Positions 6,302 through 33,147 of a stretch of DNA of 64,000 nt are shown here, piece after piece. The notes beneath the pieces were generated by a model, which was not told the origin of the DNA, ran no database searches, and saw only the letters and a list, made by a program, of their open reading frames with translations. Source of the stretch: an uncultured delta proteobacterium (GTDB taxonomy: Bacteria; Desulfobacterota; Syntrophia; Syntrophales; Fen-1087); the NCBI GenBank assembly GCA_963709485.1, contig CAVPWE010000007.1, forward strand, positions 78,858 to 142,857, written 5' to 3'. The position numbers and the translations under genes are program-made. Positions within the stretch are counted from its first letter, which is position 1. Every line of letters starts with the position of its first letter.

Positions 6302-6346
6302 TGGTGGTCCGTGTGAGGATTGAACTCACGACCAACGGATTAAGAG
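6302..6346 (-). repeat. Partial tRNA-Lys copy 1 (3' half; distal att junction of island A)
   Basis: TGGTGGTCCGTGTGAGGATTGAACTCACGACCAACGGATTAAGAG matches 33073-33117 of the intact tRNA at all but 2 positions and has the same orientation. Confidence 0.85.
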
Positions 6347-6676
6347 CCGAAAACTGAAAACAGGCGATTTCCCATCAAAATTAATCGCTTAAGTATCAAC
6401 AGGTTGCGAAGGTCAACTTGTATTACATTGGTTTTTCTTGGCTTTTTTTCGGTTCTGGCGGTTACAATTTGGTTACACTGTTTTCTTGACTCGAACTCGT
6501 CTTTTTCTCCCCAACACAGCCCCGGTCCAGCCGGGAATACCCGCTCGGCTCACAGGCACTGGAATGAGGATGTGCGGAAGGAGTTGGAGGGGCGAGCTGT
6601 TAAAGCGCAACGGCCATCATTTCCTGGTCAGGGAATAGATGCAGTTTTCGGATGTATCTGCCACCCTTGTGAGGCA

Positions 6677-6883
6677 TTGTCGGAATCCTTTACAGGTATG
6701 ACTTGCCGTAACTATTTCTATTTATTATACAATCATCAATAATCACGAATCTTCCCCCGTTTCAATTGTCGGAATATTTTACAAACCGTAAAACACTGTA
6801 AATCATTTATCTGTCTATAATTATTATATATTCCCCAGAATAGATCTGTTGTCCTGCCAATTTAACCGTCGGAATTCTTTACA
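6677..6883 (+). promoter_or_regulatory. Three copies of a 17-nt dyad-ended motif (candidate enhancer/UAS sites)
   Basis: The copies are TGTCGGAATCCTTTACA (6678-6694), TGTCGGAATATTTTACA (6767-6783) and CGTCGGAATTCTTTACA (6867-6883). All share one orientation and have the form TGT-N11-ACA. They lie ~65-270 bp upstream of the -24/-12 element. Confidence 0.4.
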
Positions 6884-6945
6884 ATTTCAATGAATTCCTG
6901 GGCTATGATTCCATAATCATGAATGATATCAATCTTGTAATTGTA

Positions 6946-6961
6946 TGGTATAAGAATTGCT
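6946..6961 (+). promoter_or_regulatory. Sigma-54-type -24/-12 promoter of the PEP-CTERM cassette
   Basis: TGGTATAAGAATTGCT has GG (6947-6948) and GC (6959-6960) separated by exactly 10 nt, as in the TGGCAC-N5-TTGC consensus. It sits ~47 nt upstream of the ATG at 7008, which has an AAAGAGGAG RBS. Confidence 0.5.
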
Positions 6962-7007
6962 ACATGTAAGTTCAGTCTCATGAAAAAAATTCAAAGAGGA
7001 GATAATT

Positions 7008-7982
7008 ATGAAAAGATTGCTTTCGGTATTGGTTACGTTATCCATCCTGTTGGGCCTGGCAGGCATGGCGACCGCGGGTCACATTTATCCGTATGGACTC
7101 AATGCAATATCAGAAGCTGGTGTTATGGCTGGTGTAAGTTATGGTGGGGGAGGCTTCCCGATTGGCAGTAACTGGTATGGTTATAGCAAAGGGAACAATG
7201 ATGACCTTTCCTTTTCCTATCCTCCTGCAAATCCATACAGTATTTACAACCAGAATCAGTTAAACTCGAATGCTAACTTTGTGAACGTAGGTTACGTCGA
7301 CCTCGTAGTTACGGTTTTTAACACGTATACCGCATGGAATGATAATATGCAGGCTTGGCAAAATACTCTCACATCTGTTGCCGGGACTGCGAATTTAACC
7401 ACCGCAGAGTATTTTTTTAATTACAATTACGGTTACTGGGGAGACCCTACATATAATTGGCAATATTGGAATGATCTGAGATCCCACAAGAATCAAACAG
7501 GACAAACATGGGACACATTTACGTATGAACTGGGATTCGGAACAGGGACTAACTTCTTCAAAAATCCGGTCAATGACGGGCTTGACTTTGACACACCATC
7601 AATGAACCCATACCCATATTCAACACAATTGTCCAGTTTCAATCATCAGGATGATACCCTTACGTTTTACAACGGTACCGTACCCAATAACGGACTGCTT
7701 TATACTTTCTTTGCCTTGGATATTCCAAACTCTGATAGCATACCACAAGCCTATAGGTTCACCAACAGGGCTGTAACCCTCGATATTCAGTCTTACGATG
7801 CTACTGGTCAAACTATTACAACCCCTACACAGTTCTTAGTTGATGGTTACGATTTCACGCTCCGCTATTATCCAACAGCCGCTAATGGTAATACGAATCC
7901 CGTCCCCGAACCCGCCACCATACTTCTTCTTGGTCTGGGTCTGATGGGACTTGCAGGAGCGAGGAGAAAGTTAAAGAAGTAG
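7008..7982 (+). CDS. PEP-CTERM sorting-domain protein (paralog 1)
   Basis: The 324-aa product has a signal peptide and an N/Y/W/T-rich body. The C-terminus VPEPATILLLGLGLMGLAGARRKLKK gives the PEP motif, a TM helix and a basic tail. Confidence 0.9.
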   Translation: MKRLLSVLVTLSILLGLAGMATAGHIYPYGLNAISEAGVMAGVSYGGGGFPIGSNWYGYSKGNNDDLSFSYPPANPYSIYNQNQLNSNANFVNVGYVDLVVTVFNTYTAWNDNMQAWQNTLTSVAGTANLTTAEYFFNYNYGYWGDPTYNWQYWNDLRSHKNQTGQTWDTFTYELGFGTGTNFFKNPVNDGLDFDTPSMNPYPYSTQLSSFNHQDDTLTFYNGTVPNNGLLYTFFALDIPNSDSIPQAYRFTNRAVTLDIQSYDATGQTITTPTQFLVDGYDFTLRYYPTAANGNTNPVPEPATILLLGLGLMGLAGARRKLKK

Positions 7983-8089
7983 GTTGGTTCAAAATTTCAA
8001 AAGAAAGAAAATTCTTATCAATTTAATTGAGAAGAGATTCAAGAAGCAAAAGAATCAATTGATTTCAACTCAATCTAAAGGAGTAAGCG

Positions 8090-8866
8090 ATGAAAACTTT
8101 GAGAAAGATGTTGACTCCCCTCGTGGCCATCTTACTGTTTTTTTCGGTTTGTCCTCTTCCTGCATTTTCAGATGTTATCTATCAGGAGGACTTTGAAGGA
8201 TCACCAGCGCTGACGAACTGGAGCATTACTTCTTCGATTCACCCAGCCCTATCTTCATATGGTCTGCAAGTCACTCAAGACCTTACCGGGAATCGCCTCC
8301 TGGGCTCCAGTGCCGCACCCAATGCAGCCGGGCTCTTCAACTACGCCGAAAAAGTGCAACTTGCTTTGGATGCTCAGGCGGGTTCCTATTCAATCTGGTT
8401 TGACCTATACGCTATTTACACATGGGATGGGGACGGCTCTGGTTGCTGCGGCCCGGATCCCTTCGATTTTTCAATTAATGGCATTAATCGCCTGAGTGTC
8501 ACTCCTAATATGATTGCTACAGGGGTTTACGAAAACTTATCCGGCATTAATCCTCTCTTTCAATATACTTATAATGGCACTGAACTCCCGGGGCAGCAAG
8601 GAAATGTGATTGATGTATGGGCGGCCATTTATACCTTCAAAATCGATTTCGCTCATTCAGGTGGACAATTGTTATTTGAATTCTGGGGGCATCCGGATCA
8701 ATCACGCCAACAGAATTATGATTCCGGTTATCCTGATGAACCCTGGGCCTTGGACAATATCAAGGTAAGCAAGGTGAACACACCCCCTGTCCCCGAACCG
8801 GCCACCATGCTACTTCTTGGACTGGGTCTGATGGGGCTGGCAGGGGTGAGGAGGAAGAGGTTTTAA
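8090..8866 (+). CDS. PEP-CTERM sorting-domain protein (paralog 2)
   Basis: The 258-aa product has a signal peptide and the C-terminus VPEPATMLLLGLGLMGLAGVRRKRF. Confidence 0.9.
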   Translation: MKTLRKMLTPLVAILLFFSVCPLPAFSDVIYQEDFEGSPALTNWSITSSIHPALSSYGLQVTQDLTGNRLLGSSAAPNAAGLFNYAEKVQLALDAQAGSYSIWFDLYAIYTWDGDGSGCCGPDPFDFSINGINRLSVTPNMIATGVYENLSGINPLFQYTYNGTELPGQQGNVIDVWAAIYTFKIDFAHSGGQLLFEFWGHPDQSRQQNYDSGYPDEPWALDNIKVSKVNTPPVPEPATMLLLGLGLMGLAGVRRKRF

Positions 8867-8898
8867 AAGTCTTGAAACCTGATGTTAGGGAGGATTTG

Positions 8899-9489
8899 AT
8901 GATGAAAAAATATTTAATGTTTCTATTCGTCATAGCCTTCATCTTCCTCGGAACGGCGATGGAGGTGAAAGCATTCCCAAGCCTTATCAACGTTGACAGT
9001 TCAAGCAATAACTATGCAGGCAATGATTCGCCACCCGCACTGGCATCCGGGATAGGACCATATGGTTATATGGACGGAATTTCCTTCTATTTCCCCGCAG
9101 GCATTTACAGTTTTTCGGTATACGATGGCGCCTGGAATGCGTGGGGTGATAATGTGGTCAATGATACCAATGGTGATGGCATATTGGACCAAGGTTGGAT
9201 GTGGTCAATGTTTATCTATAATGAAAACACGGGTGCAAAATATCAGTTGGGAGATTGGACCGTTAAATTCAATTCTCCTGCTAACGCATTGAATGCCTTT
9301 AGTGGTAACATTGTAACCGTAAATCAGCCTTTGGCTGGGAATATCTGGTTTTTTATTGAAGATGGATACACCAGCGATAATTTTGGCTCTGTTACTGCAC
9401 TTGCCAAAGCCGTCCCCGAACCTGCCACCATGCTGCTTCTTGGCCTGGGTCTGATGGGACTGGTGGGAATTAGAAGAAAGATGAAATGA
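8899..9489 (+). CDS. PEP-CTERM sorting-domain protein (paralog 3)
   Basis: The ORF track gives 8872..9489. I chose the ATG at 8899 because it follows a GGGAGG RBS (MMKKYLMFLFV... signal peptide). The C-terminus is VPEPATMLLLGLGLMGLVGIRRKMK. Confidence 0.9.
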   Translation: MMKKYLMFLFVIAFIFLGTAMEVKAFPSLINVDSSSNNYAGNDSPPALASGIGPYGYMDGISFYFPAGIYSFSVYDGAWNAWGDNVVNDTNGDGILDQGWMWSMFIYNENTGAKYQLGDWTVKFNSPANALNAFSGNIVTVNQPLAGNIWFFIEDGYTSDNFGSVTALAKAVPEPATMLLLGLGLMGLVGIRRKMK

Positions 9490-9543
9490 TGCACTTCTTC
9501 AAGATTCACAAGTTACTGAAAATGGATTAAGGAGGGGAAGGCC

Positions 9544-10164
9544 ATGAAAAGAGCATTGATTGCAACATTACTGATTTTTTTGTTGTTTCCCGTTTCCGTC
9601 CTTGCCCATCCCGTGAACGCATCTTTAAGCGGTGAATATAGTATCAATGTTCAAACTGTTAATATTGGTGTGGATGCATGGAAGTTTATTTATACGATAA
9701 CGAACAATTCGGAAGGGAGCGGAATCTATACCGGTTTGGATGCTTTCTTTGTAATGGTGCCTCTGACAGCAACCATATCAAACATTCAAGCTCCTGATCC
9801 GTATATTGATGTTCCTTATGCATACTGGGCAACTTATAATGACACCTATCCTCCGATAGATACTTCAACCTATCAATGGCTGAAATTTTGGGGAGCAGAC
9901 CCATCATCGGTTTACCCTGTCGGCACATCGGCCGTATTCAGTTTCGATGCCGCTAATGTGCAAATTGGAACCAATCAAGGCTATGTTGTCACTTATTTCT
10001 ACGATGACGCTCAGAGTTCCACAAACCCCAACGATTGGTATCATGCCTACTACTCTCAAATCACAGGGCCAGTCCCCGGCCCCGTCCCCGAACCCACCAC
10101 GATGCTTCTTCTTGGCCTCGGGTTGATGGGATTGGCAGGGGTGAGGAAGAGGTTTGAGCGTTAA
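9544..10164 (+). CDS. PEP-CTERM sorting-domain protein (paralog 4)
   Basis: The 206-aa product has a signal peptide and the C-terminus VPEPTTMLLLGLGLMGLAGVRKRFER. Confidence 0.9.
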   Translation: MKRALIATLLIFLLFPVSVLAHPVNASLSGEYSINVQTVNIGVDAWKFIYTITNNSEGSGIYTGLDAFFVMVPLTATISNIQAPDPYIDVPYAYWATYNDTYPPIDTSTYQWLKFWGADPSSVYPVGTSAVFSFDAANVQIGTNQGYVVTYFYDDAQSSTNPNDWYHAYYSQITGPVPGPVPEPTTMLLLGLGLMGLAGVRKRFER

Positions 10165-10467
10165 TCTGATTCAACAGAATTCAACGGCAATTTAAGGAGA
10201 CGACCATGAGAAGCATATTTCTAAAATGTGCGTTGTTCTTCTTGGGGTTGTTGACAGCATTTGTTCCTCTGAATCCCGCAGGGGCTGCACCTATATCCAT
10301 CGACATAACTGCCACAATAAGTTCGATTAGTGATTCGTATGGATTCTTGACTGGGCACATTGGTGTCGGTGACATCATCCACGGAACATATATCTACGAG
10401 ACAACCACAGCGGATACAAATGCCTTGTCCGAGGTCGGAGACTATCGGCATACGACTGCACCGTTCG

Positions 10468-12374
10468 CCGGGGTTCGACAGTCGTAGGCATTTTTTAGCC
10501 CTTTTGCTGGCGTAAGTGGTTGAAAATACGTGGTGGGACTTCCGGAAAACGGGAAAACGTGTAGGCATGCGAATATGATAATTGTACTTGACATGATTGG
10601 TAGTATGTGTTATATGAGTAGGCATGTATATAAGAACAATCTCCCGAAAGAACAAAGGCGGAACCACCACGACCTATGTCCAGTTGGCCCACAATGTTCG
10701 TGATCCCCAGACCGGGCAGCCACGGGCGGATGTCCTTTACAGTTTCGGGCGTGCCGATACCCTGGATGTTGATGCGATCAGGCGACTGACCAAAAGCCTT
10801 TCCCGCTTTCTTTCTCCTGAAGAGGCTTTGCAGATTCAGGGAGCTGCAGAGGGTGACACGCCGCTTCGATTTGTCAGGAGTTACCCCATGGGCGGCGCCT
10901 ATCTCCTGCGTGCCCTGTGGGAACAGCTGGGAATACCCAATGCTCTTTCTCAATGTATGAAAGATCGGTCGTTTACGTCGCCGGTGGAATGGGCGTCCTT
11001 TGCCATGGCGGCGAATCGCGCCTTGGCCCCTGACTCCAAGCGGGGAGTCGAGGAGTGGGTCAGAGACGATGTGGCACTGAGGAATCCAGAACCTATCGAG
11101 CTTCAGCATCTGTACCGGGCGATGGATGTTCTTCTGGAGTATCGGGAGATCATTCACAAAGAGGTCTTCTTTGCCGTGGCGGATCTTTTGAACCTGGAAG
11201 TGGATCTGATCTTCTTTGACACCACCAGCACCTACTTCGAGATGGATGAAGAGGATGAAGTCGGACTGCGGCAGTACGGTCACTCCAAGGATCACCGGTC
11301 GGATCTTCCGCAGATCGTCATTGGTCTGGCGGTGACGAAAGAGGGTATCCCGGTGAAGTGCTGGACCATGCCGGGGAATACGTCGGATATGAAGACGGTG
11401 GAGACGGTCAAAAATGATCTTCTCGGATGGAAGCTGGGTCGCTGCATCTGGGTCATGGACCGGGGAATGAACTCGGAAGATAACCGCCTGATCCTTCAGA
11501 AGGCCGGCGGTCATTATATTATCGGAGAGAAGCTCCGGGACAACCAGGAGGTCCACAGGGAGGTTCTGGCCAAGCGGGGCAGGTTTACCGCCATCCGGGA
11601 AAATCTGGAAATCAAGGAAGTTATTGTCGGCGATGGGGAGCGCCGCCGCCGGTTTATCCTGGTTCACAATCCCGAAGAGGCCAAAAAGGACAAAGCCACC
11701 CGTGAGAAGACGCTCAAAAAGATTGAGGAAGCGCTTAAGTCCATCAAGGAACAAAAGGGGCAATGTCACAAGAAAAACGTATGCGCCCTGCTGTCTCACC
11801 GAACGATGGGGAGATTCCTGAGGCAGCTGAAAACCGGCGCGATCAAGATCGACAAGGGCAAGATCAAAGAAGAGGCCCATCTGGACGGGAAGTATATCAT
11901 CTCCACCAGTGACGACACGCTGACACCGGAGGACATCGCCTTGGGTTACAAACAGCTGATGGAAGTTGAACGGGCCTTTCGGACCCTGAAGACGACCCTG
12001 GATCTGAGACCTGTCTATCATCGGAAGGATGAACGGATTCAAGCACACGTGTTTCTCTGCTTCCTCGCTCTCCTTTTGGTGAGGATTGCCGAGAGGAAAA
12101 CCAACATGACCTGGGACAGCATTAGAACCCAAATGGACCGTCTTCATCTTGGAGAATTTTTTTCAAAAGAAGGACGGGTTTTACAGACCACCGAACCGAC
12201 CCCTGAACAGTTGAACATATTGAAACAACTAAAAATATCACCGCCGCAACGGATAAGACACATCCAAATGACCCCCTGAATCTGTAGGCACACGCCTAAA
12301 AATCGAGCATGACTTATGTTTTCAATTTTACTTAACAATTTCAATCGCGCTTACCTAACGCTGTCGAAGGGGGG
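10468..12374 (+). mobile_element. IS1634-family (IS4-like) insertion sequence
   Basis: The ends are imperfect inverted repeats: TTCGACAGTCGTAGGCA on the left and TACCTAACGCTGTCGAA on the right. A 5-bp direct repeat GTTCG flanks the element (10463-10467 and 12375-12379). There is a single transposase gene. Confidence 0.75.
10624..12279 (+). CDS. IS1634-family DDE transposase
   Basis: The 551-aa product has the N-terminus MYIRTISRKNKGGTTTTYVQLAHNVRDPQTGQPRADVLYSFGRAD, typical of IS1634 transposases as I remember them. The antisense 550-aa ORF is a shadow. Confidence 0.85.
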   Translation: MYIRTISRKNKGGTTTTYVQLAHNVRDPQTGQPRADVLYSFGRADTLDVDAIRRLTKSLSRFLSPEEALQIQGAAEGDTPLRFVRSYPMGGAYLLRALWEQLGIPNALSQCMKDRSFTSPVEWASFAMAANRALAPDSKRGVEEWVRDDVALRNPEPIELQHLYRAMDVLLEYREIIHKEVFFAVADLLNLEVDLIFFDTTSTYFEMDEEDEVGLRQYGHSKDHRSDLPQIVIGLAVTKEGIPVKCWTMPGNTSDMKTVETVKNDLLGWKLGRCIWVMDRGMNSEDNRLILQKAGGHYIIGEKLRDNQEVHREVLAKRGRFTAIRENLEIKEVIVGDGERRRRFILVHNPEEAKKDKATREKTLKKIEEALKSIKEQKGQCHKKNVCALLSHRTMGRFLRQLKTGAIKIDKGKIKEEAHLDGKYIISTSDDTLTPEDIALGYKQLMEVERAFRTLKTTLDLRPVYHRKDERIQAHVFLCFLALLLVRIAERKTNMTWDSIRTQMDRLHLGEFFSKEGRVLQTTEPTPEQLNILKQLKISPPQRIRHIQMTP

Positions 12375-13438
12375 GTTCGGCATAACCCTGGAGGTAAACG
12401 GATTTTTATTTCGCACCGACCCGGGTGATGTCGATTTCCTGGTAGAGATTTGTAATGACCATAATGATAACCACGACGCTTACCTGCTGCGAAGTTATAA
12501 TAATCTTTTTGACATCTCGGTTCCTTTGGGTGATCCAAGCTTTACATGGTCCCGTGACAACCACATTCATTGGCAACTTTATGATAGCAGCCATACCGCT
12601 TTAGCGAGCACAGCGGGCACAGCGCTGCCAACAATGCCTCCGGTTCTGTCTGATTGGCCATCGCCTTACCGCCTGGACATCAGTAGTCAACAAATCTTCG
12701 GAGACACTCAAAGTTTTTACATCTTGGCCGATGTCAATTCGGTTGTCCTTTCCCCCACATCAGTTCCAGAACCTACCACGATGTTACTGCTCGGTCTTGG
12801 TCTGGTGGGACTTGCAGGAGTCAGGAGGAAGATTCAAAAATAAACTCGGTCACACAGTCGGGTTATGAACACCGCGGTTCTTACTTCGTGAAGGGTGAGG
12901 CAGAGTCAGAAATGGCCCTGCTTTTTTTTGTGTTAAGAACAAATAGATTTGTCCGGTTTTGTAACACATGAGTTGTCCGCTTTTTCTGTTCTTTGCCGGG
13001 GGGCTTTTGAGAACAGGAGGTGAGCGGCGGATATAGGTGGTCTGGGTTCTTAGGACAGGAGACAGGGGTTTATAAGTGGGAAAGCGCTCCTGGTTGATGG
13101 TCATGCCGCCTTTCCGGGCTTTACTTCCATGAGTTTCCCGTGCCTGTGTCTTCCGCTACGCTCCAGTTAGATGGAAACAGGCATCGTCATTTACAGAGGC
13201 GCAGCGCGATCGGCAACATGGTCAGGGCGGGCATACCCGAGCATGTTGCAATGAAGATATCCGGCCACAAGACAAGGAGTGTGTTCGACCGCTATTGTTT
13301 CCGGTCGTGATAAATTGAGCCAAAAATGGTCGTTTAAAAGTGAGCCACTTTGGGGGTGGATATGGTGAGAGAAAAGGGTATGGTGCCTTTTTTATCTCAG
13401 CGTGAGCGAGGTGGCGTATTGAAAAAAAGGAGACCGTT

Positions 13439-25127: not shown

Positions 25128-26069
25128 ATGTCCGCCAAATACGCCGAGGCCCTGGGCAACATCCCGCCGCCGGGGTGCGGCTGCCATCCGTTTCTGCTCT
25201 CCGTGTCGAATTACGGGGTCATGGCGGGCCTTTCGCCCGAGACCATATACTCGGACATCTCGGCGGCCATCCCTCCAGGGGAACGGCGCATCTCGGACCG
25301 GGAGATCGAGTCGGCCATCAAGAAGGCACTGCAGGACCACGGCAAGGGCGGAGGGTACATCCCCCGGAAGCCGGAGCCGGTCGTAAAGGACGGCCGAGCG
25401 GCGCGGGAACGGATCATCAACAAGGCGCGGATCACGGACGAAGCGGACCTGTGGGACGCATCCCCGATCCGCCTGTGGGATGAACCGGACCAGGACGCGG
25501 TCCTGTTCCTCAATGTGGTGTTCCTCCCCGACGACCAGGTCTGGATCGGGGAGCGTACCGATCCGGGCATCCTCGGCGTGAACATCAAGTCCGCCGCCGT
25601 ATGGATCGAACATTTCAAAGCGGGCGGGACATCCGGCCCGTTCATCATCATCAATCCCCTGTCCGGCAAGTGGGCAAACGTCAAGGGCGGCGATGGGATC
25701 ACCTTCCGGGGCGATAATAACGTGGCGGATTTCGCTCATTGCCTTGTTGAGTTTGACAACATCCCCCGAGAGGAGCAGCTGCGGTTTTGGGCCGCCGCAA
25801 ATCTTCCCATCGTCGCCTTGATTGATTCCGGCGGCAAGAGCATTCACGCCTGGATCGAGGTTCAGAAGCTGGCGGTCGTGAACACGCTTGCCGAGTGGCA
25901 GCAGCACATCAAGTGCCGCCTCTATGACGGGAACCTGGTCCCGATGGGCGTTGATCCGGCCTGCTCTAATCCATCCCGCCTGTCCAGGCTACCAGGACAT
26001 TTCAGACAAGAAAAAAATTCATATCAGAAAATCCTTTGGCTATCGCCGGAGGGGAGGACGATCCAATGA
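25128..26069 (+). CDS. Archaeo-eukaryotic-primase (prim-pol)-like replication protein
   Basis: This is the internal ATG of ORF 25056..26069. The acidic motif CLVEFDN and the motif SGGKSIHAWI fit AEP motifs I and II (DxD-like and sGxGxH). The ending SRLSRLPG is typical of plasmid/satellite primase domains. Confidence 0.5.
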   Translation: MSAKYAEALGNIPPPGCGCHPFLLSVSNYGVMAGLSPETIYSDISAAIPPGERRISDREIESAIKKALQDHGKGGGYIPRKPEPVVKDGRAARERIINKARITDEADLWDASPIRLWDEPDQDAVLFLNVVFLPDDQVWIGERTDPGILGVNIKSAAVWIEHFKAGGTSGPFIIINPLSGKWANVKGGDGITFRGDNNVADFAHCLVEFDNIPREEQLRFWAAANLPIVALIDSGGKSIHAWIEVQKLAVVNTLAEWQQHIKCRLYDGNLVPMGVDPACSNPSRLSRLPGHFRQEKNSYQKILWLSPEGRTIQ

Positions 26070-27136
26070 ACGGAATGGATGGGTTTGAGAATCAGGCACG
26101 GGCAGCGCAACTGCTGCCGCTTGTCAGCGCCGCCGCCTACCTGGAACATGAGCCGCCGGAGCCGGATCAGATTTTCACGGATACGCTTGATGCGGGCGAT
26201 AAAATGACCATCATCGCACCGTCAAAGCTCCGCAAGTCCTTTTTTACACAGCAAATGGCCCTGTCACTCGCAGCCGGTCGAGACTTTCTGAAATGGGAAG
26301 TCCCGAAGGCCCGCCGTGTCCTCTACTGCCAGTTTGAAATCAAGTCGAACCACAGCCACAGGCGAATCCGTAATCTTGCCAAGGCGATGAATCTCCATCC
26401 CGAGGACATCGGGGATCGCCTCATGGTTGTCAACGGGCGCGGCCTGGGCCTGATCGGACCGGACGGGGTGAAACGGATTCAAGAGGCGGCTGCGGCATTC
26501 AATCCCGAGGTGATTGTATTCGATCCCCTCTACAAGATCGCCGGGGGAGTTGAGAACGCTGCCGAGGATATGAAAACGATTCTCAACAGCTTTGATGTCC
26601 TGGCCGAGCAGACCGGAGCCGCGATCATCTATGTTCACCATGATCCAAAAGGATCGCCGGGGGAGCGTGACCTTCGGGATCGCGGATCAGGATCGAACGT
26701 CCTGGGCCGTGACTACGACGCGGCGGTCATGCTGACGCCTCACGCATCGGAAGACGAAGCCGCGGTAGTGGAGACCATCCTCCGCAACTATCGGCCACAG
26801 GAACCATTCACGGCCATCTGGGGCGAGGATGAGGGCGGCGGATACTGTTTCCGCATCGACTATGACATCACGCCGGAAAAGAAGACAGCGAAGAACAAAA
26901 CGCCGAAACTGCCGATGCCTGCATATGCACCGACAGCCGCCCAAATCCTGGGCGACGGTGAAATGGACATCGGGCCGTTTAAAACTGCCTTCAAAGAAGC
27001 AACGGGGCTATCCGATGGGCGTATACGTGACTTCATGCAATGGGCAGAATCAGGTGGAAATCCGTTCATGAAATCGGACGAAAACAGAGGCCGAGGGCAT
27101 TACCGAAAATGGGTTTGGCTGAACAAAAAGAAATAG
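26066..27136 (+). CDS. RepA/AAA_25-like (RecA-fold) ATPase, putative replicative helicase
   Basis: The start shares an ATGA overlap with the prim-pol gene. Walker-B-like VIVFDPLYK and the blocks IIYVHHDPKG and RGSGSNVLGRDYDAAVML follow the RepA-helicase pattern. The P-loop is atypical (APSKLRKS). Confidence 0.6.
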   Translation: MNGMDGFENQARAAQLLPLVSAAAYLEHEPPEPDQIFTDTLDAGDKMTIIAPSKLRKSFFTQQMALSLAAGRDFLKWEVPKARRVLYCQFEIKSNHSHRRIRNLAKAMNLHPEDIGDRLMVVNGRGLGLIGPDGVKRIQEAAAAFNPEVIVFDPLYKIAGGVENAAEDMKTILNSFDVLAEQTGAAIIYVHHDPKGSPGERDLRDRGSGSNVLGRDYDAAVMLTPHASEDEAAVVETILRNYRPQEPFTAIWGEDEGGGYCFRIDYDITPEKKTAKNKTPKLPMPAYAPTAAQILGDGEMDIGPFKTAFKEATGLSDGRIRDFMQWAESGGNPFMKSDENRGRGHYRKWVWLNKKK

Positions 27137-27290
27137 GCTTGTTAGGCTTGTTAGGCTTGTCAATAAATAGGACGCAAAGCCTAACGGCCCTATTATAGGC
27201 TTTGGCTTGTCACCTATATTATAGGTGACGTGCCAAAGCCTAAAGGCCACTGCACGACCAAAATTATTAAATAGGCTTGTCACTCTTATT
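27134..27290. repeat. Iteron block with a perfect palindrome: candidate replication origin of island C
   Basis: TAGGCTTGT occurs three times in perfect tandem (27134-27160), with further copies at ~27197-27209 (TAGGCTTTGGCTTGT) and 27272-27280. Inverted copies CAAAGCCTAA lie at ~27175-27184 and ~27233-27242. The palindrome GTCACCTATAT/TATAGGTGAC lies at 27209-27229. Confidence 0.55.
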
Positions 27291-27546
27291 TGAGGGGACA
27301 AAATGAAAAGGCGAAAATACCGAGGTCGGCCATTTTGGGACGATAACCCGATAACCAGGAAACCGATCTCCATGCAGCAGAAGATCGACCGGGTGCTGGA
27401 ATGCCTGGGGCCTGGGGCCATCATTCCAGGGAAAGTTACTCATGTTTCGGTACAGCACGACGCGGATGTCCAGCTCTAAAAACTCATAACCTGGCCGATT
27501 GTACCTGTGACTTCGATGTCGGGGTAAAGAAGCCGGACGCCTGACC

Positions 27547-27843
27547 ATGCAAATGCCATTCGGAAAATATTGTGGCGCGGACCTGGGGGACATCCCGGAC
27601 AGTTACCTTGAATGGCTGTTCGGCCTGGAGGACTTGCGGGAGCCGCTGCGGTCGGCCGTGATCCTGGAGCGGGCAGCACGTCGGCGGGACTTCTACGACG
27701 AACCTTCGGCAAATATGCCGGATGTCCAGGACAGGGTGCGGTCGGTATATCGGGAGCTGTCTATCAAGTACCATCCCGATACAGGCGGCAGCCATCTGGC
27801 GCAATGTGCGATCAACGAGTTCTATGAACGGGTAAAGCAATAG
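27547..27843 (+). CDS. DUF3820-like N-terminus fused to a J-domain-like segment (HPD motif)
   Basis: MQMPFGKYCGADLGDIPDSYLEWLF resembles DUF3820. VRSVYRELSIKYHPDTGGSHLAQCAINEFYERV resembles J-domain helix II, the HPD motif and helix III. Confidence 0.5.
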   Translation: MQMPFGKYCGADLGDIPDSYLEWLFGLEDLREPLRSAVILERAARRRDFYDEPSANMPDVQDRVRSVYRELSIKYHPDTGGSHLAQCAINEFYERVKQ

Positions 27844-27852
27844 GGGGTGGTC

Positions 27853-28149
27853 ATGGAATCCGAATTGAAGTTTATGGATTGGACGAAAGACACGGACAGA
27901 ATGAAGGAATGGAAAAGCACCAAAAGCTGCGGAACGGTTAAGTATATCAAAAGGCACGATAGCATTGTCATCGATCCGAAGGGACATGAATACTATATTG
28001 AAATGGACAGGCTTAAGACGGCCGAACAGGCTTTCTGCTGGATATGCCATCTCCATCAAAAGATATGGTTCACGCCTCAAATGCTGTCCGATCTTGTTTA
28101 TGTCATAACCAGGACAACGACGATAAACGAATACTGCGACAAGGATTGA
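27853..28149 (+). CDS. Hypothetical protein
   Basis: The ORF track gives 27847..28149. I chose the ATG at 27853, which follows GGGGGTGG. The region is locally AT-richer. No family recognised. Confidence 0.35.
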   Translation: MESELKFMDWTKDTDRMKEWKSTKSCGTVKYIKRHDSIVIDPKGHEYYIEMDRLKTAEQAFCWICHLHQKIWFTPQMLSDLVYVITRTTTINEYCDKD

Positions 28150-28161
28150 CGGAGGGACATC

Positions 28162-28422
28162 ATGGACAATCAAGCGTTTGAATTGAGGCGGTTAGGTTTG
28201 CGGCAGATGATGGGGCAGGAGCAGTTCATTGAGCTTTACGATCAGGAGCTGTCCTCCCTGCTGGAGGAAGTCAAGGCCGATCCTGATGAGGACCGAAGGC
28301 GGGCGCAGACCGAGCGACTAAAGACAGATGGCAAGCATCAGATCGCATACTTGATGTCGCTATACATGGCCGGATTGCAACGTGGCGAGGATAAGGAAGA
28401 GGTCGAGCAATGCCAAAGCTGA
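28162..28422 (+). CDS. Hypothetical helical protein
   Basis: The 86-aa ORF follows a GGAGGG RBS. The sequence is charged and looks coiled-coil-like. No family recognised. Confidence 0.35.
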   Translation: MDNQAFELRRLGLRQMMGQEQFIELYDQELSSLLEEVKADPDEDRRRAQTERLKTDGKHQIAYLMSLYMAGLQRGEDKEEVEQCQS

Positions 28423-28565
28423 AACGATGTCGGGTCAAAGGCTGTCAGCGTCCAGTGTTTTATCAAGGATATTGTAGGGCCTGCCTCAATCGCTTTGCTT
28501 GGGGGACAGCCGATTCGTTACTGGCCGCCGGCAGACATGGAGACGGCGACAGTGCAGCCGGATGA
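28410..28565 (+). CDS. Small 4-Cys zinc-ribbon-like protein
   Basis: This 51-aa ORF is below the ORF-track cutoff and overlaps the previous stop. The product begins MPKLKRCRVKGCQRPVFYQGYCRACLNRF. The C-x4-C ... C-x2-C pattern resembles short zinc modules common in phage HNH-type proteins. Confidence 0.3.
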   Translation: MPKLKRCRVKGCQRPVFYQGYCRACLNRFAWGTADSLLAAGRHGDGDSAAG

Positions 28566-28734
28566 GACAAGGAAAGAGGCAAGAGGATATGACCTACACA
28601 TACACCTGGAAGAACACCAGCAAGAGGGCGCAGTTGTGTGGCCGTGAATGTGAAGCGATCGCATTCTTCGTTAAGATGCGTTCCGCCTGGGTCCGGTTCG
28701 AGAACGGCCAGGAGGAATGTGTTAGACGCGCACA

Positions 28735-28998
28735 TTGAGAAGGAAAGATCGACAGCAGCAGCGGGCGGCGGCCAAGATGCTGGGGGTGAGCAAGTCAACC
28801 GTATTAAGAGATGCTGGTCCAAATGGACCAAAAACCACAGTCGCGCATGAAGAAAATCAGGCAGTTAGCGAGGGCGTTGGTCCAAATGGACCAAAGCCCT
28901 CTCCGCTCCTGGCGGCCATCGAGAAGACGGGGGAGACGGAAGTGATAACGATGGCTTACCGGGGCTATGATAGCCTTGTAGACGGCGCGGGAAATTAA
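28735..28998 (+). CDS. Small HTH protein containing two copies of an 18-nt palindromic repeat
   Basis: The 87-aa product has the HTH-like segment AAKMLGVSKSTVLRD. The peptide GPNGPK is repeated because of the DNA repeat at 28815-28832 and 28878-28895. Confidence 0.3.
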   Translation: MRRKDRQQQRAAAKMLGVSKSTVLRDAGPNGPKTTVAHEENQAVSEGVGPNGPKPSPLLAAIEKTGETEVITMAYRGYDSLVDGAGN

Positions 28999-29069
28999 CC
29001 ATTCGCGGTCGATCGCATTCAAATTATTAATGTTTTGCTTTGAAAAATATCGCCTAAATGGTGTGTTAA

Positions 29070-29523
29070 GTGTTTGAAAACCATAGAAAACAGGCAGAAG
29101 AAGCTGCGGATGTGCTGCGGCGGGATTACGACATAAGCGATTCTGCCGGTCTTTTGCTGCTGAAGAGCTTCACTTCAATCTACGCCTACGGAGTTGGCTT
29201 GTCAATCTTGAATGAGTAAATATGGGTTGTTGGTCAAGGATCGATTCGGACAACCAAAAGACCATCCGCTTTTGAAGATCCCCTTCGGAGACGCAAGGGC
29301 GCAGAAGCTTATGGTCCTGAAGGCGCTCGGCCTCGACTTCGCCGAGCAGAACAGCAGCGGTCCCGGCAGGCCGCCCGAGGGGGTACTGGATGAGATCGAC
29401 ACGGCGAGGCGGGAAACTGCCTGCAAAGCTGGACGGGTTCACGGAATTGCACCTTCTAACCGGCTGCTGTTTCTGTGGCTGCAAAGCCTGTTATGGTCCC
29501 GCCGGGATCGCGAGGCACAGTGA
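29070..29523 (+). pseudogene. Phage terminase small-subunit (P27-like) remnant, frameshifted
   Basis: ...RRDYDISDSAGLLLLKSFTSIYAYGVGLSILNE* ends at a stop at 29217-29219 and continues in another frame as KYGLLVKDRFGQPKDHPLLKIPFGDARAQKLMVLKALGLDF. Together these fit the P27 terS pattern (dG l v.DRFGQ.k.hPll ... LgL). Confidence 0.4.
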
Positions 29524-29979
29524 GAAGGAAGCCTACGCCATGAACGAAAACGCAAGGGAGCTTTGGCGCAGGCACAGAAACGCCCTGCTGCTAATCTGGC
29601 GTGATGCTGACGCCCTGCCGACTGGCGGCGGGTTCTCGGCAAAAGGACAGGCAGGCTGCAGTCAGTGACTTTCCCTGCTATTCGGAGGTTGTGTTTGACG
29701 GCATAAAATGGCCAAGAAAGGATGGCAAGTGGCCGCCTGTGGTCAAGCATATTTGGGGGCATATTGACGATCAGTTGAAACGATGAACATACCGCCACGG
29801 GACGAGGCACAGGTAAGAGGATGCCGCGTTGTAAAGCACATCCCGCCAGGTTGGTGAGAGTCGCGACCTCATCCGCATGGCCAGGCCGCCGCTGGGCTTC
29901 TTCCCGGATCTGCCGATGGAAAATCACAGATCCGGGAAACCATATGCAGCACAAAACTAAAAATAAGAGGTGATTGAAA

Positions 29980-31235
29980 ATGACCAAGAGACGAAGAAAA
30001 TATGAAAAAGTACCCGATAGGTCCACGCGATCCACGCGAATGCGAAACGTGAACGGCGGGCGCTTACCGATCAAGAGAAGCAGCTCATCCGGGAATTTCA
30101 AGAGCTTCAGAATGAGGAGTTCCGCGATCTTCCCGCAAACCGGCCTTTGACACTCCAGGGGCCGAGCGGCAGCGGCAGCCGGTCCCGTGAGGGGTCCGTT
30201 CAAAAACCTGGGCGAGCAGATCGGGCTGGTTGTCAGAGCGGGAACACCTGGCGGAGAAATCGATCCCAGACTGCATGAGATTCGCGCTGCGTCGGGGCTT
30301 GGGGAGACGGTACCTCTGAGGCCGGATTCCTGGTTCAGAGAAGTTTTTCAAATGATCTCCTCCAGCAGCTTTACCAGACCGGCGTCCTGCTCCCGCGCTG
30401 CCGCCGCATTCAGATCGGCCCGAACAGCAACGGGATCAAGATGAACATGATCGATGAGACCTCCAGGGTCAGCACCCGCAGCGGCGGAATCGTCGGATCT
30501 GGAAGGACGAGGCCAGCGAGCTTACGGCCAGCAAGCCGAAGTTCAGACAAATCGGGTTGAATCTGAAGAAGCTGACGGGCATCTGTTATCTGACGGATGA
30601 ATTAATTGCGGACACGGTTGCGCTGGAGAGCGTGGTTTCACAGGCATTCGTGTCCGAGTTCGGATTTTTGGTCGATGACGCCATTTGCAATGGAACCGGG
30701 GCAGGGCAGCCACTTGGACTGTTGAATGCCGGTTGTTTGGTATCAGTTGCAAAGGAGACCGGGCAGAAAGCGGCGAGTGTGGTTTATGAGAACATCACAA
30801 AAATGTGGTCGCGTCTTTTGCCGCAATCCGAAGCAACCGCGGCATGGTACATCAATCGGAATATCCTGCCGCAGCTTTACGCCATGAGCCTCTCCGTCGG
30901 AACAGGTGGTGTTCCGGTTTTCATGCCCGCAAACGGCCTGTCGGGGCTTCCCTTCAATACGCTGCTCGGAAAGCCGGTCATCCCGATCGAGCAGGCGGCA
31001 ACGCTCGGCACGGTTGGCGACATCATCTGGCCGACCTAAATTCCTATATTGTGGCGGAAAAGGGGAGAATCGAGCAGGCGGGACCAGTTTGCATGTAAGA
31101 CTTTTTGTTCGATGAGGCCATTCTGCGGTGGACATATCGTCTTGATGGCCAACCAATGCTCACGCATCCGCGCTGACGCCCCACAAAGGCAGCGATGCGC
31201 TTTCGCCCTTTGTGGTCCTGGCAACGCGGGCCTGA
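29980..31235 (+). pseudogene. HK97-fold phage major capsid protein gene, broken at five or more places
   Basis: The longest intact piece is ORF 30557..31039 (LTGICYLTDELI...GTGAGQPLGLLNAG...PVFMPANGLSGLPFNTLLGKPVIPIEQAATLGTVGDII). The N-terminal coiled coil, the FKNLGEQIGLVVRAGTPGGEIDPRLHEIRAASGLGETVP block and the C-terminus LADLNSYIVAEKG...SPFVVLATRA lie in other frames. Confidence 0.7.
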
Positions 31236-32228
31236 CATTTAACACGGTCGCGGGGCTTGACGGTCCGGGCCTTTAGATCATGCTCTCTCGCGGGGGCATG
31301 AACTGCAGGTGCGGGATCCTGTCGGGTTCGCCCGGTAAGTCCCGATGGGGACAAGCCGGAGAGTGTCCTCATTTCAGAAACAACCTCCGGCGGACCGGAG
31401 CGGGGGTCTCCACTCCCGTGATCCTGGCAGCCTGGTGGCCACCACCACCAGGTGATCGAGAGGGACGCGGTCGCCTCCGTGCCTGCGCTCCTCTTTTTAC
31501 TCTCCTCTCCAGGCGGCCATGCACGATCACGACGATGTTGAACGAGTCCCTTAACGCGACGGCATCATTCGCCTGTGGAACGCGGTCACCTTGAATGCGA
31601 TTGAACGATTCGGTGTATCGGAGTCGATCACCGGCGGCACAGGCGGCGATGGAGCTTCTACTTTAATGAGTGAAACATCTTTTTAGCAGCGGTATGCGAG
31701 TTCTCTCACACCAGAAAGGGCCAGGGAACTGATCCGCGGGCCGCATGACGGCTTGCCAGGATCGACGAGGTTCAACGATCTGTGACCGGCAGGGGTGACG
31801 GGATGGGGTAATTTTCTAATTGAGCACAAAAGCCGAAGGGGGTCAGGCTATGACCACCACAGTGGTAGTCAGTGACCAACGTTTTGTTAGTCGGGGGGGG
31901 AGATGATCGTTTATCATCATATGGGTGTGGACGCAACAAGGCACACGAAGATCAAGGCCGTCGTCTCCTTCGATCACAGAAACGTGCCGCCGCGCGCAAC
32001 CGGCCATCGTTCGACAGGACGGTGGGGCCATCGGCCTGCGGTCCTGGACTGCCCTGAGATTACGCGCAAGGTGGAGAAGGCGGCGCCGGGGGAGTTGGCG
32101 GCCGTGCCGGAAGCTGGGGTTCATGTAGTGCGGTGATGGAGCACGTTCAAGGGTGGCGAATATGACAGCCGGGAGGAAGTGGGAATCTAATTCCGCAAAT
32201 TGCAAAATAGATTCCCAGGCCGAGGCCG

Positions 32229-32547
32229 TTGCTGGACATCGAGGCGCGGATCGGGGAGCTGCTGCCGAGTCCAGAGAGGAGGCAAGCCGAAAATCGGGGC
32301 ACAATCGCCCGAATAGGGAAGACCTACTCCCAAGGAAGAAAAAGTGCCAAGGGGTGTACCCGAAGGGATCACCCGAAAGAAGGCCCATCAAGCCCGGACG
32401 ATCAAGGCGCATCCGGACATCGTGGCCCGCGACTTCCTGCAGAAGGAAATGGCAAAGAATTTAAGACTTCTGGCAAAATTGCCAGAGGTCTTTTTCGCCA
32501 ACGAGCATGCTTTCGATACTGCGAAGGGCATCGGGCATCGGTCGTGA
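32229..32547 (+). pseudogene. Decayed phage-type gene (frameshifted), family not identified
   Basis: LLDIEARIGELLPS... (ORF 32229) and ...PRGVPEGITRKKAHQARTIKAHPDIVARDFLQKE (ORF 32344) are consecutive pieces of one protein pattern but lie in two frames. Confidence 0.25.
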
Positions 32548-33044
32548 AGTGATTCTCAAGCGAGTTTCTCTTAGGAGGTTCATGGAAGGAATGGAGAGGC
32601 TTTCTTTTCTAAATTTATAAGAAGGGTGGAAGACGTGTCTAAATTTATACACGACTTTTTGCAGAAGGAGATGGCCGAAAAGGTGGAATGAGTTATCTGA
32701 TGAATCTATCAGAAAACTCTTTCGAGAGGGATGAGAGGTCGCTGATAAAATCTATGTTCGAGCGATCTATTCAAGGATGGCCATGCTTTTAACACATGCA
32801 AAGCACAGGGCGTTGGTTGATGACCTTGGAAACCGTTCCGGGTTGCCCGCGACTTTCTGCGGCGGCGGATGGCGGGGGATTGGAGAGAGTGTCTAACTTT
32901 ATACACTGAGCTATTCTGATGAGGATGTGCTATGGCTTTAGGTCTGCCAAAGGGCCAGGGCATCGGATGGCAGACCATCCTCAGAGTTTCTCGGCGGTTC
33001 ATGGAAAGTTGGTCAAGTGTGGACAAACGTGGACACAGTAAAGA

Positions 33045-33067
33045 GGGCCTCCCCTTCGGGAAGCCCC
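33045..33067 (-). terminator. Hairpin immediately downstream of tRNA-Lys, supplied by the end of island C
   Basis: On the minus strand, GGGGCTTCCC GAAG GGGAGGCCC starts 6 nt after the CCA end and is followed by TCTTTAC. The stem has 9 bp with one mismatch. Confidence 0.4.
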
Positions 33068-33072
33068 GTAAT

Positions 33073-33147
33073 TGGTGGGCCGTGTGAGGATTGAACTCAC
33101 GACCAACGGATTAAAAGTCCGCTGCTCTACCTCTGAGCTAACGGCCC
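33073..33147 (-). tRNA. tRNA-Lys (anticodon UUU)
   Basis: The reverse complement GGGCCGTTAGCTCAGAGGTAGAGCAGCGGACTTTTAATCCGTTGGTCGTGAGTTCAATCCTCACACGGCCCACCA folds by hand into a cloverleaf. It has a 7-bp acceptor stem, D arm GCTC/GAGC, anticodon loop CTTTTAA, T arm GTGAG/CTCAC with loop TTCAATC, and an encoded CCA. Confidence 0.9.

Follow-up and report, generated by a model that had tools for sequence, protein, structure and literature searches.

In the 64-kb stretch of DNA analysed here (the window), parts of one tRNA gene recur at several places, which raises the question of how the DNA between them came to lie there. The first-pass annotation read the region as serial integration, three elements deep, into one tRNA gene, and the repeats, an empty site in related strains and the independence of the elements all agree with this. 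An uncultured, Syntrophales-like bacterium very probably carries three unrelated integrative elements in tandem at its tRNA-Lys(UUU) gene, and nothing was found that contradicts this model. The features are listed in Table 1.

Table 1. Features of the tRNA-Lys(UUU) locus, in order of position in the window.
Feature	Position	Strand	Remarks
DUF5329 gene	5857-6243	+	chromosomal left flank; Pfam DUF5329, E 5.5e-25
Outermost displaced tRNA 3′ fragment	6302-6348	-	44/47; mismatches at positions 7, 43, 46
Island A, 9.3 kb	6349-15665	+	decayed integrative island, PEP-CTERM cargo; bounded by tRNA fragments
Four intact PEP-CTERM genes	7008-7982, 8090-8866, 8872-9489, 9544-10164	+	Pfam PEP-CTERM E 7e-8 to 8e-9; NCBIfam PEP-CTERM models
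Fifth PEP-CTERM gene, IS-interrupted	10206-12843	+	signal-peptide half 10206-10473; PEP-CTERM half 12369-12843
IS1634-family insertion sequence	10474-12368	+	transposase 10624-12279; NCBIfam transpos_IS1634 E 8e-127
Island A integrase remnant, first piece	13176-13295	+	~270 upstream codons missing
IS21-family element in integrase remnant	13296-15521	+	istA 13439-14695, istB 14692-15462; terminal inverted repeats
Island A integrase remnant, second piece	15527-15622	+	last 31 codons (NIVSQDDLKEAALKREKFSRKQAGQLQFAQK) and stop
Displaced tRNA 3′ fragment	15666-15712	-	46/47; mismatch is last base; island A/island B junction
Island B, 6.8 kb	15713-22495	+	small integrative element, apparently intact; every gene on + strand
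HTH protein	15866-16453	+	Pfam and PHROGs
Protein of unknown kind	16487-17014	+	
DUF5659	17285-17521	+	Pfam and PHROGs
CHC2 zinc-finger primase	17543-18061	+	Pfam and PHROGs
Primase/helicase part, 427 aa	18058-19341	+	homolog in 188-kb contig annotated DUF3987
Protein of unknown kind	19369-19767	+	
HTH protein, N-terminus resembling small terminase	19774-20373	+	Pfam and PHROGs
HTH_17 excisionase-like protein	20504-20854	+	matches PHROG excisionase families
XRE HTH	20989-21189	+	Pfam and PHROGs
Protein of unknown kind	21152-21391	+	
IntB, intact tyrosine integrase, 366 aa	21372-22472	+	Pfam Phage_integrase 4e-35 and Int_N
Displaced tRNA 3′ fragment	22496-22542	-	47/47 identical; island B/island C junction
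Island C, 10.5 kb	22543-33072	+	phage-derived integrative element, decaying; bounded by fragment and tRNA
IntC, frameshifted tyrosine integrase	22628-23726	-	catalytic and core-binding ORF 22628-23497, 289 aa, Pfam Phage_integrase 9e-32
Primase-helicase gene, split	25056-27136	+	overlapping ORFs 25056-26069 and 26036-27136; AAA_25 E 1.5e-30
HK97-type major capsid protein pseudogene	30126-31244	+	at least 4 frame changes, without N-terminus; Pfam Phage_capsid E 2e-25
Hairpin and U-tract, terminator-like trailer from island C	33044-33067	-	directly after restored tRNA; RNA fold -20.7 kcal/mol
Intact tRNA-Lys(UUU), anticodon TTT	33073-33147	-	integration target; ARAGORN; Rfam RF00005 tRNA, 74 bits
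purA	33215-34516	-	chromosomal right flank; Pfam Adenylsucc_synt, E 8e-181

The tRNA-Lys gene and its displaced 3′ fragments
ARAGORN and Rfam place the tRNA-Lys gene exactly where the first-pass annotation had it, and it is the only tRNA gene in the window. Its 3′ 47 nt (33073-33119), extending through the anticodon loop, form the shared att core. Read on the plus strand from the tRNA 3′ end, this word (TGGTGGGCC...AAAAGTC) has 4 matches, all co-oriented. Apart from the gene itself these are the three displaced fragments, every one on the 3′ side of the tRNA. All three align to the 3′ part of the tRNA at the places first reported, where 45-47 nt had been given; the 47-nt search yields slightly longer spans. 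A blastn-short search of the window with the whole tRNA as query revealed no additional tRNA-Lys fragments. In front of the outermost fragment lie the DUF5329 gene and the native chromosomal trailer of the tRNA, and the same degenerate copy adjoins DUF5329 in contig L007. The independent contig L130 has the same junction between the 15666 fragment and island B.

Flanking DNA, the empty site and strain states
The left flank carries genes for a CsgG-like protein, an RRM protein, a DEAD-box helicase, a histidine phosphatase, a metallo-beta-lactamase-fold protein and DUF5329, and the right flank carries purA and genes for a serA-like PGDH and a RadA-like ATPase, content that agrees with the earlier description of housekeeping DNA outside the outermost copies. 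In metagenome contigs from strains that are ~99% identical, the site is empty, with the arrangement purA, tRNA-Lys, DUF5329 and exactly 26.8 kb absent. One of these contigs (L002) has a single intact tRNA-Lys between purA and DUF5329, and shares 99.4% identity with the window over 34664-33073 and 98.5% over 6349-5254, the two segments overlapping in the repeat only. A second (L008) aligns to both flanks with the same arrangement. Because the site is empty in near-identical strains, the 27 kb is not conserved core synteny, and the search for an empty site in related genomes that had been proposed has a positive answer in both contigs. A further contig (L001), which matches the purA side at 99.6% identity, has the 3′ end of an A-type integrase, without the IS21 interruption, directly beside the intact tRNA. 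The site is thus polymorphic in the population, occurring in empty, A-type-proximal and occupied states.

Chance matches, or a local duplication of tRNA sequence in which site-specific recombination had no part, would be a purely formal explanation of the repeats. The 47-nt word had 0 matches in 100 dinucleotide shuffles, the copies are all co-oriented 3′ fragments lying 3′ of the gene, with a recombinase for each, and a fixed structural feature is excluded by the empty site. On the shuffles and the empty-site strains this source of the repeats was rejected, and its probability is negligible.

The polymorphism of the site would also be expected if the assembler had joined strains with one element each through the shared 47-nt repeat, producing a spurious tandem. 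The internal junctions (A end/B start, B end/C start and C end/tRNA) are seen in this assembly only, and each of the independent short contigs (L003, L007 and L130) breaks inside the repeat. However, ordinary reads exceed the repeat in length, as do the large k-mers of related assemblies (k141 in record names), so each junction must rest on spanning reads, and the source contig is 680 kb long. The layout of a fragment between two integrases is also present in independent assemblies of another organism. In addition, the outermost fragment has diverged (3 mismatches) and island A contains two IS, as expected of an old distal element and not of a co-equal variant. A chimera of this kind is very unlikely.

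Independence and composition of the three intervals
No DNA similarity was detected among intervals A, B and C. Each contains a tyrosine-recombinase gene or remnant, as the first-pass annotation had stated, the gene being intact in B, frameshifted in C and an IS-split stub in A. IntB and IntC are ~23% identical and the C-terminus of the A-type integrase is different again, and the three integrases are, as judged from these comparisons, unrelated. Each element also has private repeated words, which occur at both of its own ends and nowhere else in the 64 kb, and are candidate arm-type integrase binding sites. Island A has two 11-mers, GAAAACAGGCG (6356, 15585) and GTTACAATTTG (6461, 15601). The island B word ACTTCACA occurs only at 15831, 15842, 22428 and 22439, and the island C word GTGGACAC only at 22586, 22618 and 33029, with GTGGACAA at 33019. 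The GC content is 48.9% in A (45.2% without its two IS elements), 45.9% in B and 55.3% in C, versus 52.9% in the left and 58.2% in the right flank; the observation that A and B are AT-richer than the flanks therefore stands.

A single composite element moving as a unit, in which the internal tRNA fragments are relics and not boundaries, is very unlikely. In its favour, recombination between any pair of the direct repeats is conceivable because they are identical, and composite islands at tRNA genes are known (PMC8978831). Nevertheless, every interval has a recombinase of its own, two of these three enzymes being dead, as well as private words at its ends. In addition, B-like elements are found alone elsewhere, and in L001 an A-type element adjoins the tRNA without B or C.

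Island A
Both insertion sequences of island A interrupt genes. The IS1634-family element, bounded by 15-nt terminal inverted repeats (10474-10488 and 12354-12368), lies inside the fifth PEP-CTERM gene. The IS21-family element (NCBIfam transpos_IS21 E 4e-86; Pfam IstB_IS21 E 6e-80) has generated a 5-bp target duplication, GCTAT, at 13291-13295 and 15522-15526, and separates the two pieces of the integrase, of which only the last ~70 codons are kept. The second piece is 96% identical to L001, which has an uninterrupted version. The remnant covers positions 126-168 of the 172 of Pfam Phage_integrase (E 1e-3), and its score falls below the gathering score because the piece is very short. With an integrase reduced to ~70 codons and split by IS21, and one cargo gene also split by the IS1634-family element, island A is apparently immobilised.

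Island B
The stop codon of IntB is 23 nt before the 22496 fragment. IntB has 3398 homologs at E<1e-60. Among the IntB-related metagenome loci that continue past the integrase stop, most have an opposite-strand tRNA gene (Cys, Lys, Ala or Val) shortly after it, and a relative with 81% identity adjoins tRNA-Phe; the clade evidently targets tRNA genes. The gene order of island B recurs in L131, L132 and a 188-kb contig. A relative of IntB with 84% identity heads a B-like element of the same gene order, which is followed by a tRNA-Lys(UUU) 3′ fragment from a different host sequence and, beyond that fragment, by a convergent second integrase and prophage genes. Of the three elements, only island B, which looks functional, is predicted to excise by itself; its excision would involve the 15666 and 22496 copies together with IntB and the HTH_17 excisionase-like protein.

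The protein resembling a small terminase matches PHROG 641 and PHROG 51 (E ~1e-8) over residues 37-109, the HTH domain, only, and its match to Pfam Terminase_2 (E 0.0098) is below the cut-off. An AlphaFold model (pLDDT 84) has a best PDB match no better than E 0.16, and the phage protein 2ao9 appears only at rank 43 in the structure search. The AlpA Pfam model PF05930 has no match in island B, and Pfam and PHROG searches found no head-related or capsid-morphogenesis genes there.

Island C
The N-terminal ~80 codons of IntC lie in another frame, from 23498 to about 23726, so IntC is a frameshifted gene, and once reconstructed, the protein aligns colinearly to both IntB and L027 through the point of the frameshift. 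IntC is located at the end of island C far from the tRNA, and is convergent with IntB across the 22496 copy. The two halves of the primase-helicase correspond to successive parts of one PHROG 2597 profile (195-313 and 346-552 of 747). The capsid pseudogene was read by tblastn with a Clostridium phage capsid protein and by tblastx against single-frame homologs, e.g. L050, L056 and L058. Island C yielded no portal, ClpP protease, terminase or connector in tblastn searches, in tblastx comparisons with intact head modules or in a Pfam scan of the three plus-strand frames. As the integrase, primase-helicase and capsid genes are frameshifted and the portal, protease and terminase are gone, island C is evidently decaying. 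The decay pattern of the array fits an order with the newest element next to the tRNA poorly: the tRNA-proximal island C is heavily decayed, and island B, further out, is intact.

Integration model and order of arrival
Each round would have involved tyrosine-recombinase integration at one att site in tRNA-Lys(UUU). The attP of each element would carry the tRNA sequence that runs from the anticodon loop to the 3′ CCA end, and those of A and B also about 14-16 nt of native trailer. The crossover probably falls in the anticodon loop, since it is there that the match to the tRNA stops. At the end of each element the tRNA or its fragment is succeeded by a terminator-like hairpin (z = -6.3 for that of B), and every element would bring its own. 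With the tRNA 3′ part and a hairpin supplied in this way, integration would rebuild a working tRNA and push the old 3′ part outwards as a fragment, and three rounds would leave three fragments and one intact gene.

The presence of an A-type integrase end immediately next to the tRNA in a near-identical strain suggests that island A was the first to arrive. With IntC frameshifted and the A integrase reduced to a short IS-split stub, only the recombinase of B is intact, and neither A nor C is likely to be excised separately by its own enzyme.

For the later arrivals, it is possible, though we consider it rather unlikely, that B came last and integrated into the internal tRNA fragment at an A/C junction, the displaced fragment acting as a still-working secondary att site. 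B is fully intact, while C, the youngest in the simple model, has at least 6 disabling frameshifts. Moreover, the attP side of B matches the native trailer CCCCTTGATTTC, which is kept at the internal A-end junction, and the tRNA rebuilt by C has a different trailer after it. However, the 5′ strand of the anticodon stem, next to the presumed crossover, is missing from the fragment, and in intact relatives IntB-type genes adjoin whole tRNA genes. Alternatively, selection could have preserved an older B intact, or C could have been defective on arrival. Either order leads to the same final arrangement, so the sequence is equally compatible with B last and with C last.

Significance of the locus
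As a tandem array of three integrative elements, the locus presents four stages of a hotspot in a natural population, namely empty, once occupied, stacked three deep, and partly eroded by IS and frameshifts. Its main value is as a well-documented example, and knowledge of how islands integrate is unchanged by it. It supplies precise predicted att sites and candidate arm sites, together with an integrase, IntB, that is apparently active, and in a syntrophic-anaerobe lineage without genetic tools IntB and the 47-bp target could serve for site-specific insertion.

B-type elements, with the module order primase/helicase, two-HTH protein, excisionase-like protein, XRE regulator and integrase, were found in Syntrophales, Thermodesulfobacteriota and Nitrospirota-type anaerobes. 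At this locus and again in the 188-kb contig, one is in tandem with a phage-derived element at a tRNA-Lys att site. On a speculative and improbable reading, B-type elements would be an undescribed ~7 kb tRNA-targeting satellite-like family, and, given the recurrent tandems, such a satellite might park next to a helper prophage via the shared attB. It might even integrate into the displaced tRNA fragment of its helper.

Comparison with known systems
The core components of PICI and other phage satellites have been defined for SatelliteFinder (de Sousa et al. 2023, PMC10085698). Island B resembles a PICI in its small size and in having an integrase (IntB), a primase-replicase module (the CHC2 primase and the 427-aa primase/helicase part), and, for the regulation module (an alpA, merR or stl homolog), the AlpA-like HTH_17 regulator/excisionase and the XRE-type HTH, as well as a protein with an N-terminus resembling a small-terminase DNA-binding domain. 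It differs in lacking a capsid-morphogenesis gene, and assignment of that protein as the small terminase subunit is not supported by the fold comparison. Island C is reminiscent of a capsid-forming PICI (cfPICI), with an integrase divergent from the replication module plus a capsid gene. However, the cfPICI set comprises capsid, portal, protease, head-tail connectors and small terminase and excludes tail and lysis genes, whereas the island C capsid gene is a pseudogene and no portal, protease, connector or terminase was found. No helper phage is known for these islands, and PICI were described from Proteobacteria and Firmicutes, to neither of which their hosts belong.

Site-specific accretion is known from phage-ICE tandems and from tandem integration of SGI1 (PMC13651849, PMC2297512). 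There, as here, several elements occupy one attB head to tail with att repeats between them. The elements described there are related or cooperating and their co-transfer was demonstrated, whereas the three elements here are unrelated and two are inactive.

The closest comparison is with the tandem genomic-island arrays at tRNA and tmRNA genes catalogued in Islander (Hudson, Lau & Williams 2015, PMC4383910), which lists 125 tandems of at least 2 islands, and only 4 of at least 3, among 3919 islands in 2168 genomes. The intact tDNA with co-oriented 3′ fragments on its 3′ side, one tyrosine integrase gene per interval, the anticodon-centred attP (Islander class 'A') and island sizes within the usual range are shared with those arrays, and the region is absent, with attB uninterrupted, in relatives (L002 and L008). 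The integrase of each member is here a gene or remnant; island A, with its ~70-codon stub, is borderline for an automatic caller and might go unscored under the strict Islander rule of an integrase ORF per member. The present array differs in being three deep and in its host, an uncultured Syntrophales-like lineage. Triple arrays are uncommon and already catalogued, and the locus is a clean but textbook tRNA integration hotspot with two decaying elements and one intact-looking element.

The tRNA-Lys target and its partial copies

ARAGORN found a single tRNA in the window, a tRNA-Lys(UUU), and the Rfam search found no RNA families besides tRNA. A 47-nt word from this gene, running from the CCA end via the T arm to the anticodon loop, has four matches on the + strand, one within the gene and three as separate fragments (see table), and in all three fragments identity to the tRNA ends just beyond the anticodon loop. 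The word has no match in any of 100 dinucleotide shuffles. Pattern matches, these shuffles and blastn-short show that the repeat coordinates and mismatch counts of the first-pass annotation were right. With the whole tRNA as query, blastn-short at relaxed settings detected no further tRNA fragments in the window; a fourth, hidden element was therefore rejected, and on this evidence the two halves of island C are not separable into two elements.

Patches of 47-49% GC occur in the left chromosomal flank (window 1000-5000), where no mobile-element genes were detected.

Features of the tRNA-Lys locus and its flanks (window coordinates)
Feature	Position	Strand	Remarks
RRM-domain protein gene	1281-1607	-	low-GC patch around gene
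Histidine-phosphatase gene	3753-4454	-	low-GC patch around gene
DUF5329 gene	5857-6243	+	left flank
tRNA 3' fragment	6302-6348		3 mismatches
Island A	6349-15665		five PEP-CTERM protein genes
Island A end word GAAAACAGGCG	6356 and 15585
Island A end word GTTACAATTTG	6461 and 15601
IS1634-family element	10474-12368		transposase E 8e-127; 15-nt inverted repeats
IS21 element, istA/istB	13296-15521		inside integrase stub; 5-bp duplication GCTAT
tRNA 3' fragment	15666-15712		1 mismatch, last base
Island B	15713-22495		all genes +; apparently intact
Island B start, ATTTCATTATGG...			borders 47-nt core
Island B end, ...CAACCCCTTGATTTCGT			borders 47-nt core
Island B end word ACTTCACA	15831, 15842, 22428, 22439		twice per end
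IntB (island B integrase)	21372-22472	+
tRNA 3' fragment	22496-22542		0 mismatches
Island C	22543-33072		integrase minus strand, at end far from tRNA
Island C end word GTGGACAC	22586, 22618, 33029
Island C end word GTGGACAA	33019
IntC (island C integrase)	22628-23726	-
tRNA-Lys(UUU)	33073-33147	-	ARAGORN; Rfam 74 bits
tRNA 3' copy within gene	starts 33073		word read on + strand
purA	33215-34516	-	right flank

Empty and partly occupied sites

Short metagenome contigs of near-identical strains were recovered through exact matches to PurA and to the DUF5329 protein. One of these, L002 (2.6 kb), carries purA, one intact tRNA-Lys, the DUF5329 gene and a metallo-beta-lactamase-fold gene. It is 99.4% identical to 34664-33073 and 98.5% identical to 6349-5254, and the two matches overlap in the repeat only. 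A further contig, L008, presents the empty site from the other side. The shuffle control together with the empty site excludes chance repeats as the origin of the pattern. Contig L001, 99.6% identical to the window on the purA side, has an integrase 3' end directly past the intact tRNA and free of IS21, which is 96-100% identical to both pieces of the island A integrase stub. L001 seems to represent an earlier stage, when the tRNA-adjacent element was of the A type. In contig L007, the degenerate outer tRNA fragment adjoins the DUF5329 gene. The empty sites and the states seen in L001 and L007 show that the 26.8 kb is accessory DNA inserted exactly between repeat copies, at a tRNA-Lys site that is polymorphic in the population.

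That polymorphism, and the fact that every independent short contig breaks in the repeat, could also be accommodated by an assembly chimera in which strain variants were threaded together via the repeat. However, the 47-nt repeat is shorter than the read length and than the k = 141 of related assemblies, the outer fragment and island A show age-related decay, and a matching layout recurs in other assemblies, leaving a chimera very improbable.

A DUF5329 scan of reference genomes placed the host among Syntrophaceae/Syntrophales MAGs. The protein scan of genome contigs returned only four loci in these MAGs (63-79% identity over the best segment). The tRNA synteny is absent from them, and since none of the four has a tRNA-Lys nearby they are uninformative on the integration site.

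Independence of the three elements

No DNA is common to intervals A, B and C, and PEP-CTERM tails repeat inside A only. IntB and IntC are about 23% identical, and the C-terminus of the A-type integrase differs from both; by sequence comparison the three recombinases are unrelated. Within the whole 64 kb, short words are private to each interval's own two ends. From this position and exclusivity we infer three different attP regions, with the words as their candidate arm-type sites for integrase binding. Because recombinases and end words are private to each interval, and A-type and B-type elements occur separately, one composite element is excluded. The locus does consist of three elements, as the first-pass annotation had correctly interpreted it, and its proposal of serial integration is borne out by the repeats, the empty site and the private recombinases and end words.

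The native tRNA trailer, CCCCTTGATTTC, is also copied, with 14-16 nt repeated beyond the tRNA 3' end at the ends of A, B and the L001 element (window 6285-6301, 15649-15665 and 22480-22495; also L001, L002 and L008), so that the identity block of these elements with attB is ~63 bp. The island C end has no copy of the native trailer. Either attP site history or selection on tRNA 3' processing might underlie the trailer copying. Each element end carries a hairpin and U-tract right after the tRNA or fragment, the strongest being that of island B (-25 kcal/mol, z = -6.3).

Island A

Without its IS elements, island A has a GC content of 45%. The fifth PEP-CTERM gene is interrupted by the IS1634-family element, with the signal peptide encoded in one half and the PEP-CTERM part in the other. 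G-runs on both sides make the exact target duplication ambiguous; only one of 2 or 5 nt would restore the reading frame. The integrase is reduced to its last ~70 codons, in which the HxxR and GH...Y motifs are still present (Pfam Phage_integrase match over positions 126-168 of 172, E 1e-3), and removal of IS21 gives ...FDRYNIVSQ..., exactly the L001 version. Island A would be unable to move by itself.

Island B and the IntB family

The genes of island B predict, in order, an HTH protein, two small unknowns (one DUF5659), a CHC2 zinc-finger primase, a 427-aa primase/helicase part, an unknown, a 199-aa two-HTH protein (B07), an HTH_17 excisionase-like protein, an XRE regulator, a small unknown and IntB. 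Similarity of B07 to small terminases is confined to the HTH domain, and in a fold search its AlphaFold model (pLDDT 84) matched no PDB structure significantly. Island B may be a phage satellite: of the five core components of PICIs (PMC10085698) it has three, namely integrase, regulator and primase-replicase. It has no capsid-morphogenesis gene. A 55%-identical homolog of the two-HTH protein ends a different element of ~6.5 kb, found in >20 contigs (L042-L047, which carry protein P0008, among them), in which it follows a 421-aa integrase, a D5_N/DUF5906 helicase and a DnaG-type primase. The two-HTH protein apparently recurs as a module in small primase-helicase elements.

The IntB clade is very large (3398 proteins at E<1e-60); in IMG/VR, neither IntB nor IntC has close relatives (best 28-33%). 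Among 18 metagenome loci surveyed for 60-78% identical relatives of IntB, most that extend beyond the integrase have a tRNA (Cys, Lys, Ala or Val) on the opposite strand ~25-90 nt past the stop, and several keep the module of two-HTH protein, excisionase-like protein, XRE regulator and integrase. An 84% relative heads a B-like element in a 188-kb contig, with its genes in matching order. Next comes a tRNA-Lys(UUU) 3' fragment with another host's T-arm sequence, and after it a second, convergent integrase accompanied by prophage genes that include RecT and an S24 repressor. These loci show that island B belongs to a real, recurrent element family and that the window's tandem layout occurs elsewhere.

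An 81% relative (contig L133, ENA ERZ27239157, 1789-2985) adjoins tRNA-Phe(GAA) beside housekeeping genes, and an 84% relative lies at tRNA-Lys(UUU) in L131/L132, which suggests that closely related IntB-type integrases switch tRNA targets. Another eroded tRNA hotspot is seen in L038/L039, where a tRNA-Cys/Gly/Val cluster adjoins an internally frameshifted IntB-like gene; in L038, a second integrase has also left remnants across the cluster from it. In L028 (4089-7205) the IntB relative stops 2 kb, not ~30 nt, before tRNA-Ala, and another element may have inserted between them, as in the window.

Island C

IntC converges on IntB across the 22496 fragment, and exact-protein look-ups of the two gave no match, even though the protein collection contains IntB; no independent contig spanning the B/C junction was found. 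The 289-aa IntC ORF includes the core-binding and catalytic domains, with the N-terminal ~80 codons in another frame; once reconstructed, the protein aligns colinearly over the junction with both IntB and an intact relative, so the gene is frameshifted. Two overlapping ORFs, which match successive parts of one PHROG profile, make up the split primase-helicase, and the HK97-type capsid gene has at least 4 frame changes relative to single-frame homologs and a missing N-terminus. No terminase, portal, protease or connector gene is left in island C, whereas intact relatives have the full module. Island C is a decaying phage-derived element. A capsid-forming satellite was rejected, a capsid pseudogene being all that is present. 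Two 53% relatives of the helicase in IMG/VR have no context in common, and PADLOC found no defence genes among the ten unknown ORFs of islands B and C.

A 47-nt near-perfect palindrome (27196-27242; DNA fold -23.9 kcal/mol, z = -7.5) 60 nt past the end of the primase-helicase gene could be a terminator or the replication origin of island C. A perfect 13-bp stem followed by TTTTT (23736-23770) directly precedes the frameshifted IntC start, in the gap that separates this gene from the divergent genes of island C, and may be a terminator/insulator or an operator. A small ORF (27547-27843) has a QSregVF_b (DUF3820-type) motif (E 6e-7) and a weak J-domain HPD motif (E 2e-3).

Order of arrival

To judge from L001, the first arrival was an A-type element. 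Every newcomer is usually assumed to use the intact tRNA, which would make island C the youngest. However, the decay of island C is much greater than that of island B. Possibly selection keeps B intact, or C was already defective on arrival, or B came last via the internal fragment junction, which retains a native-like trailer matched by B's attP. All three would yield the same final arrangement, and the sequence therefore cannot decide the order.

Comparison with known tandem arrays

Islands A, B and C are themselves new, though of known kinds. The locus is useful as a worked example, unsurprising to a specialist, and might supply an intractable group with an integrase/att pair. It bears the signature used by the Islander database, and its fragments correspond to the anticodon-centred att class defined there (PMC4383910). 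Islander holds 125 tandem arrays of at least two islands, four of them with at least three, among 3919 islands in 2168 genomes (PMC4383910). The phenomenon is known, and a triple array is uncommon, not new.
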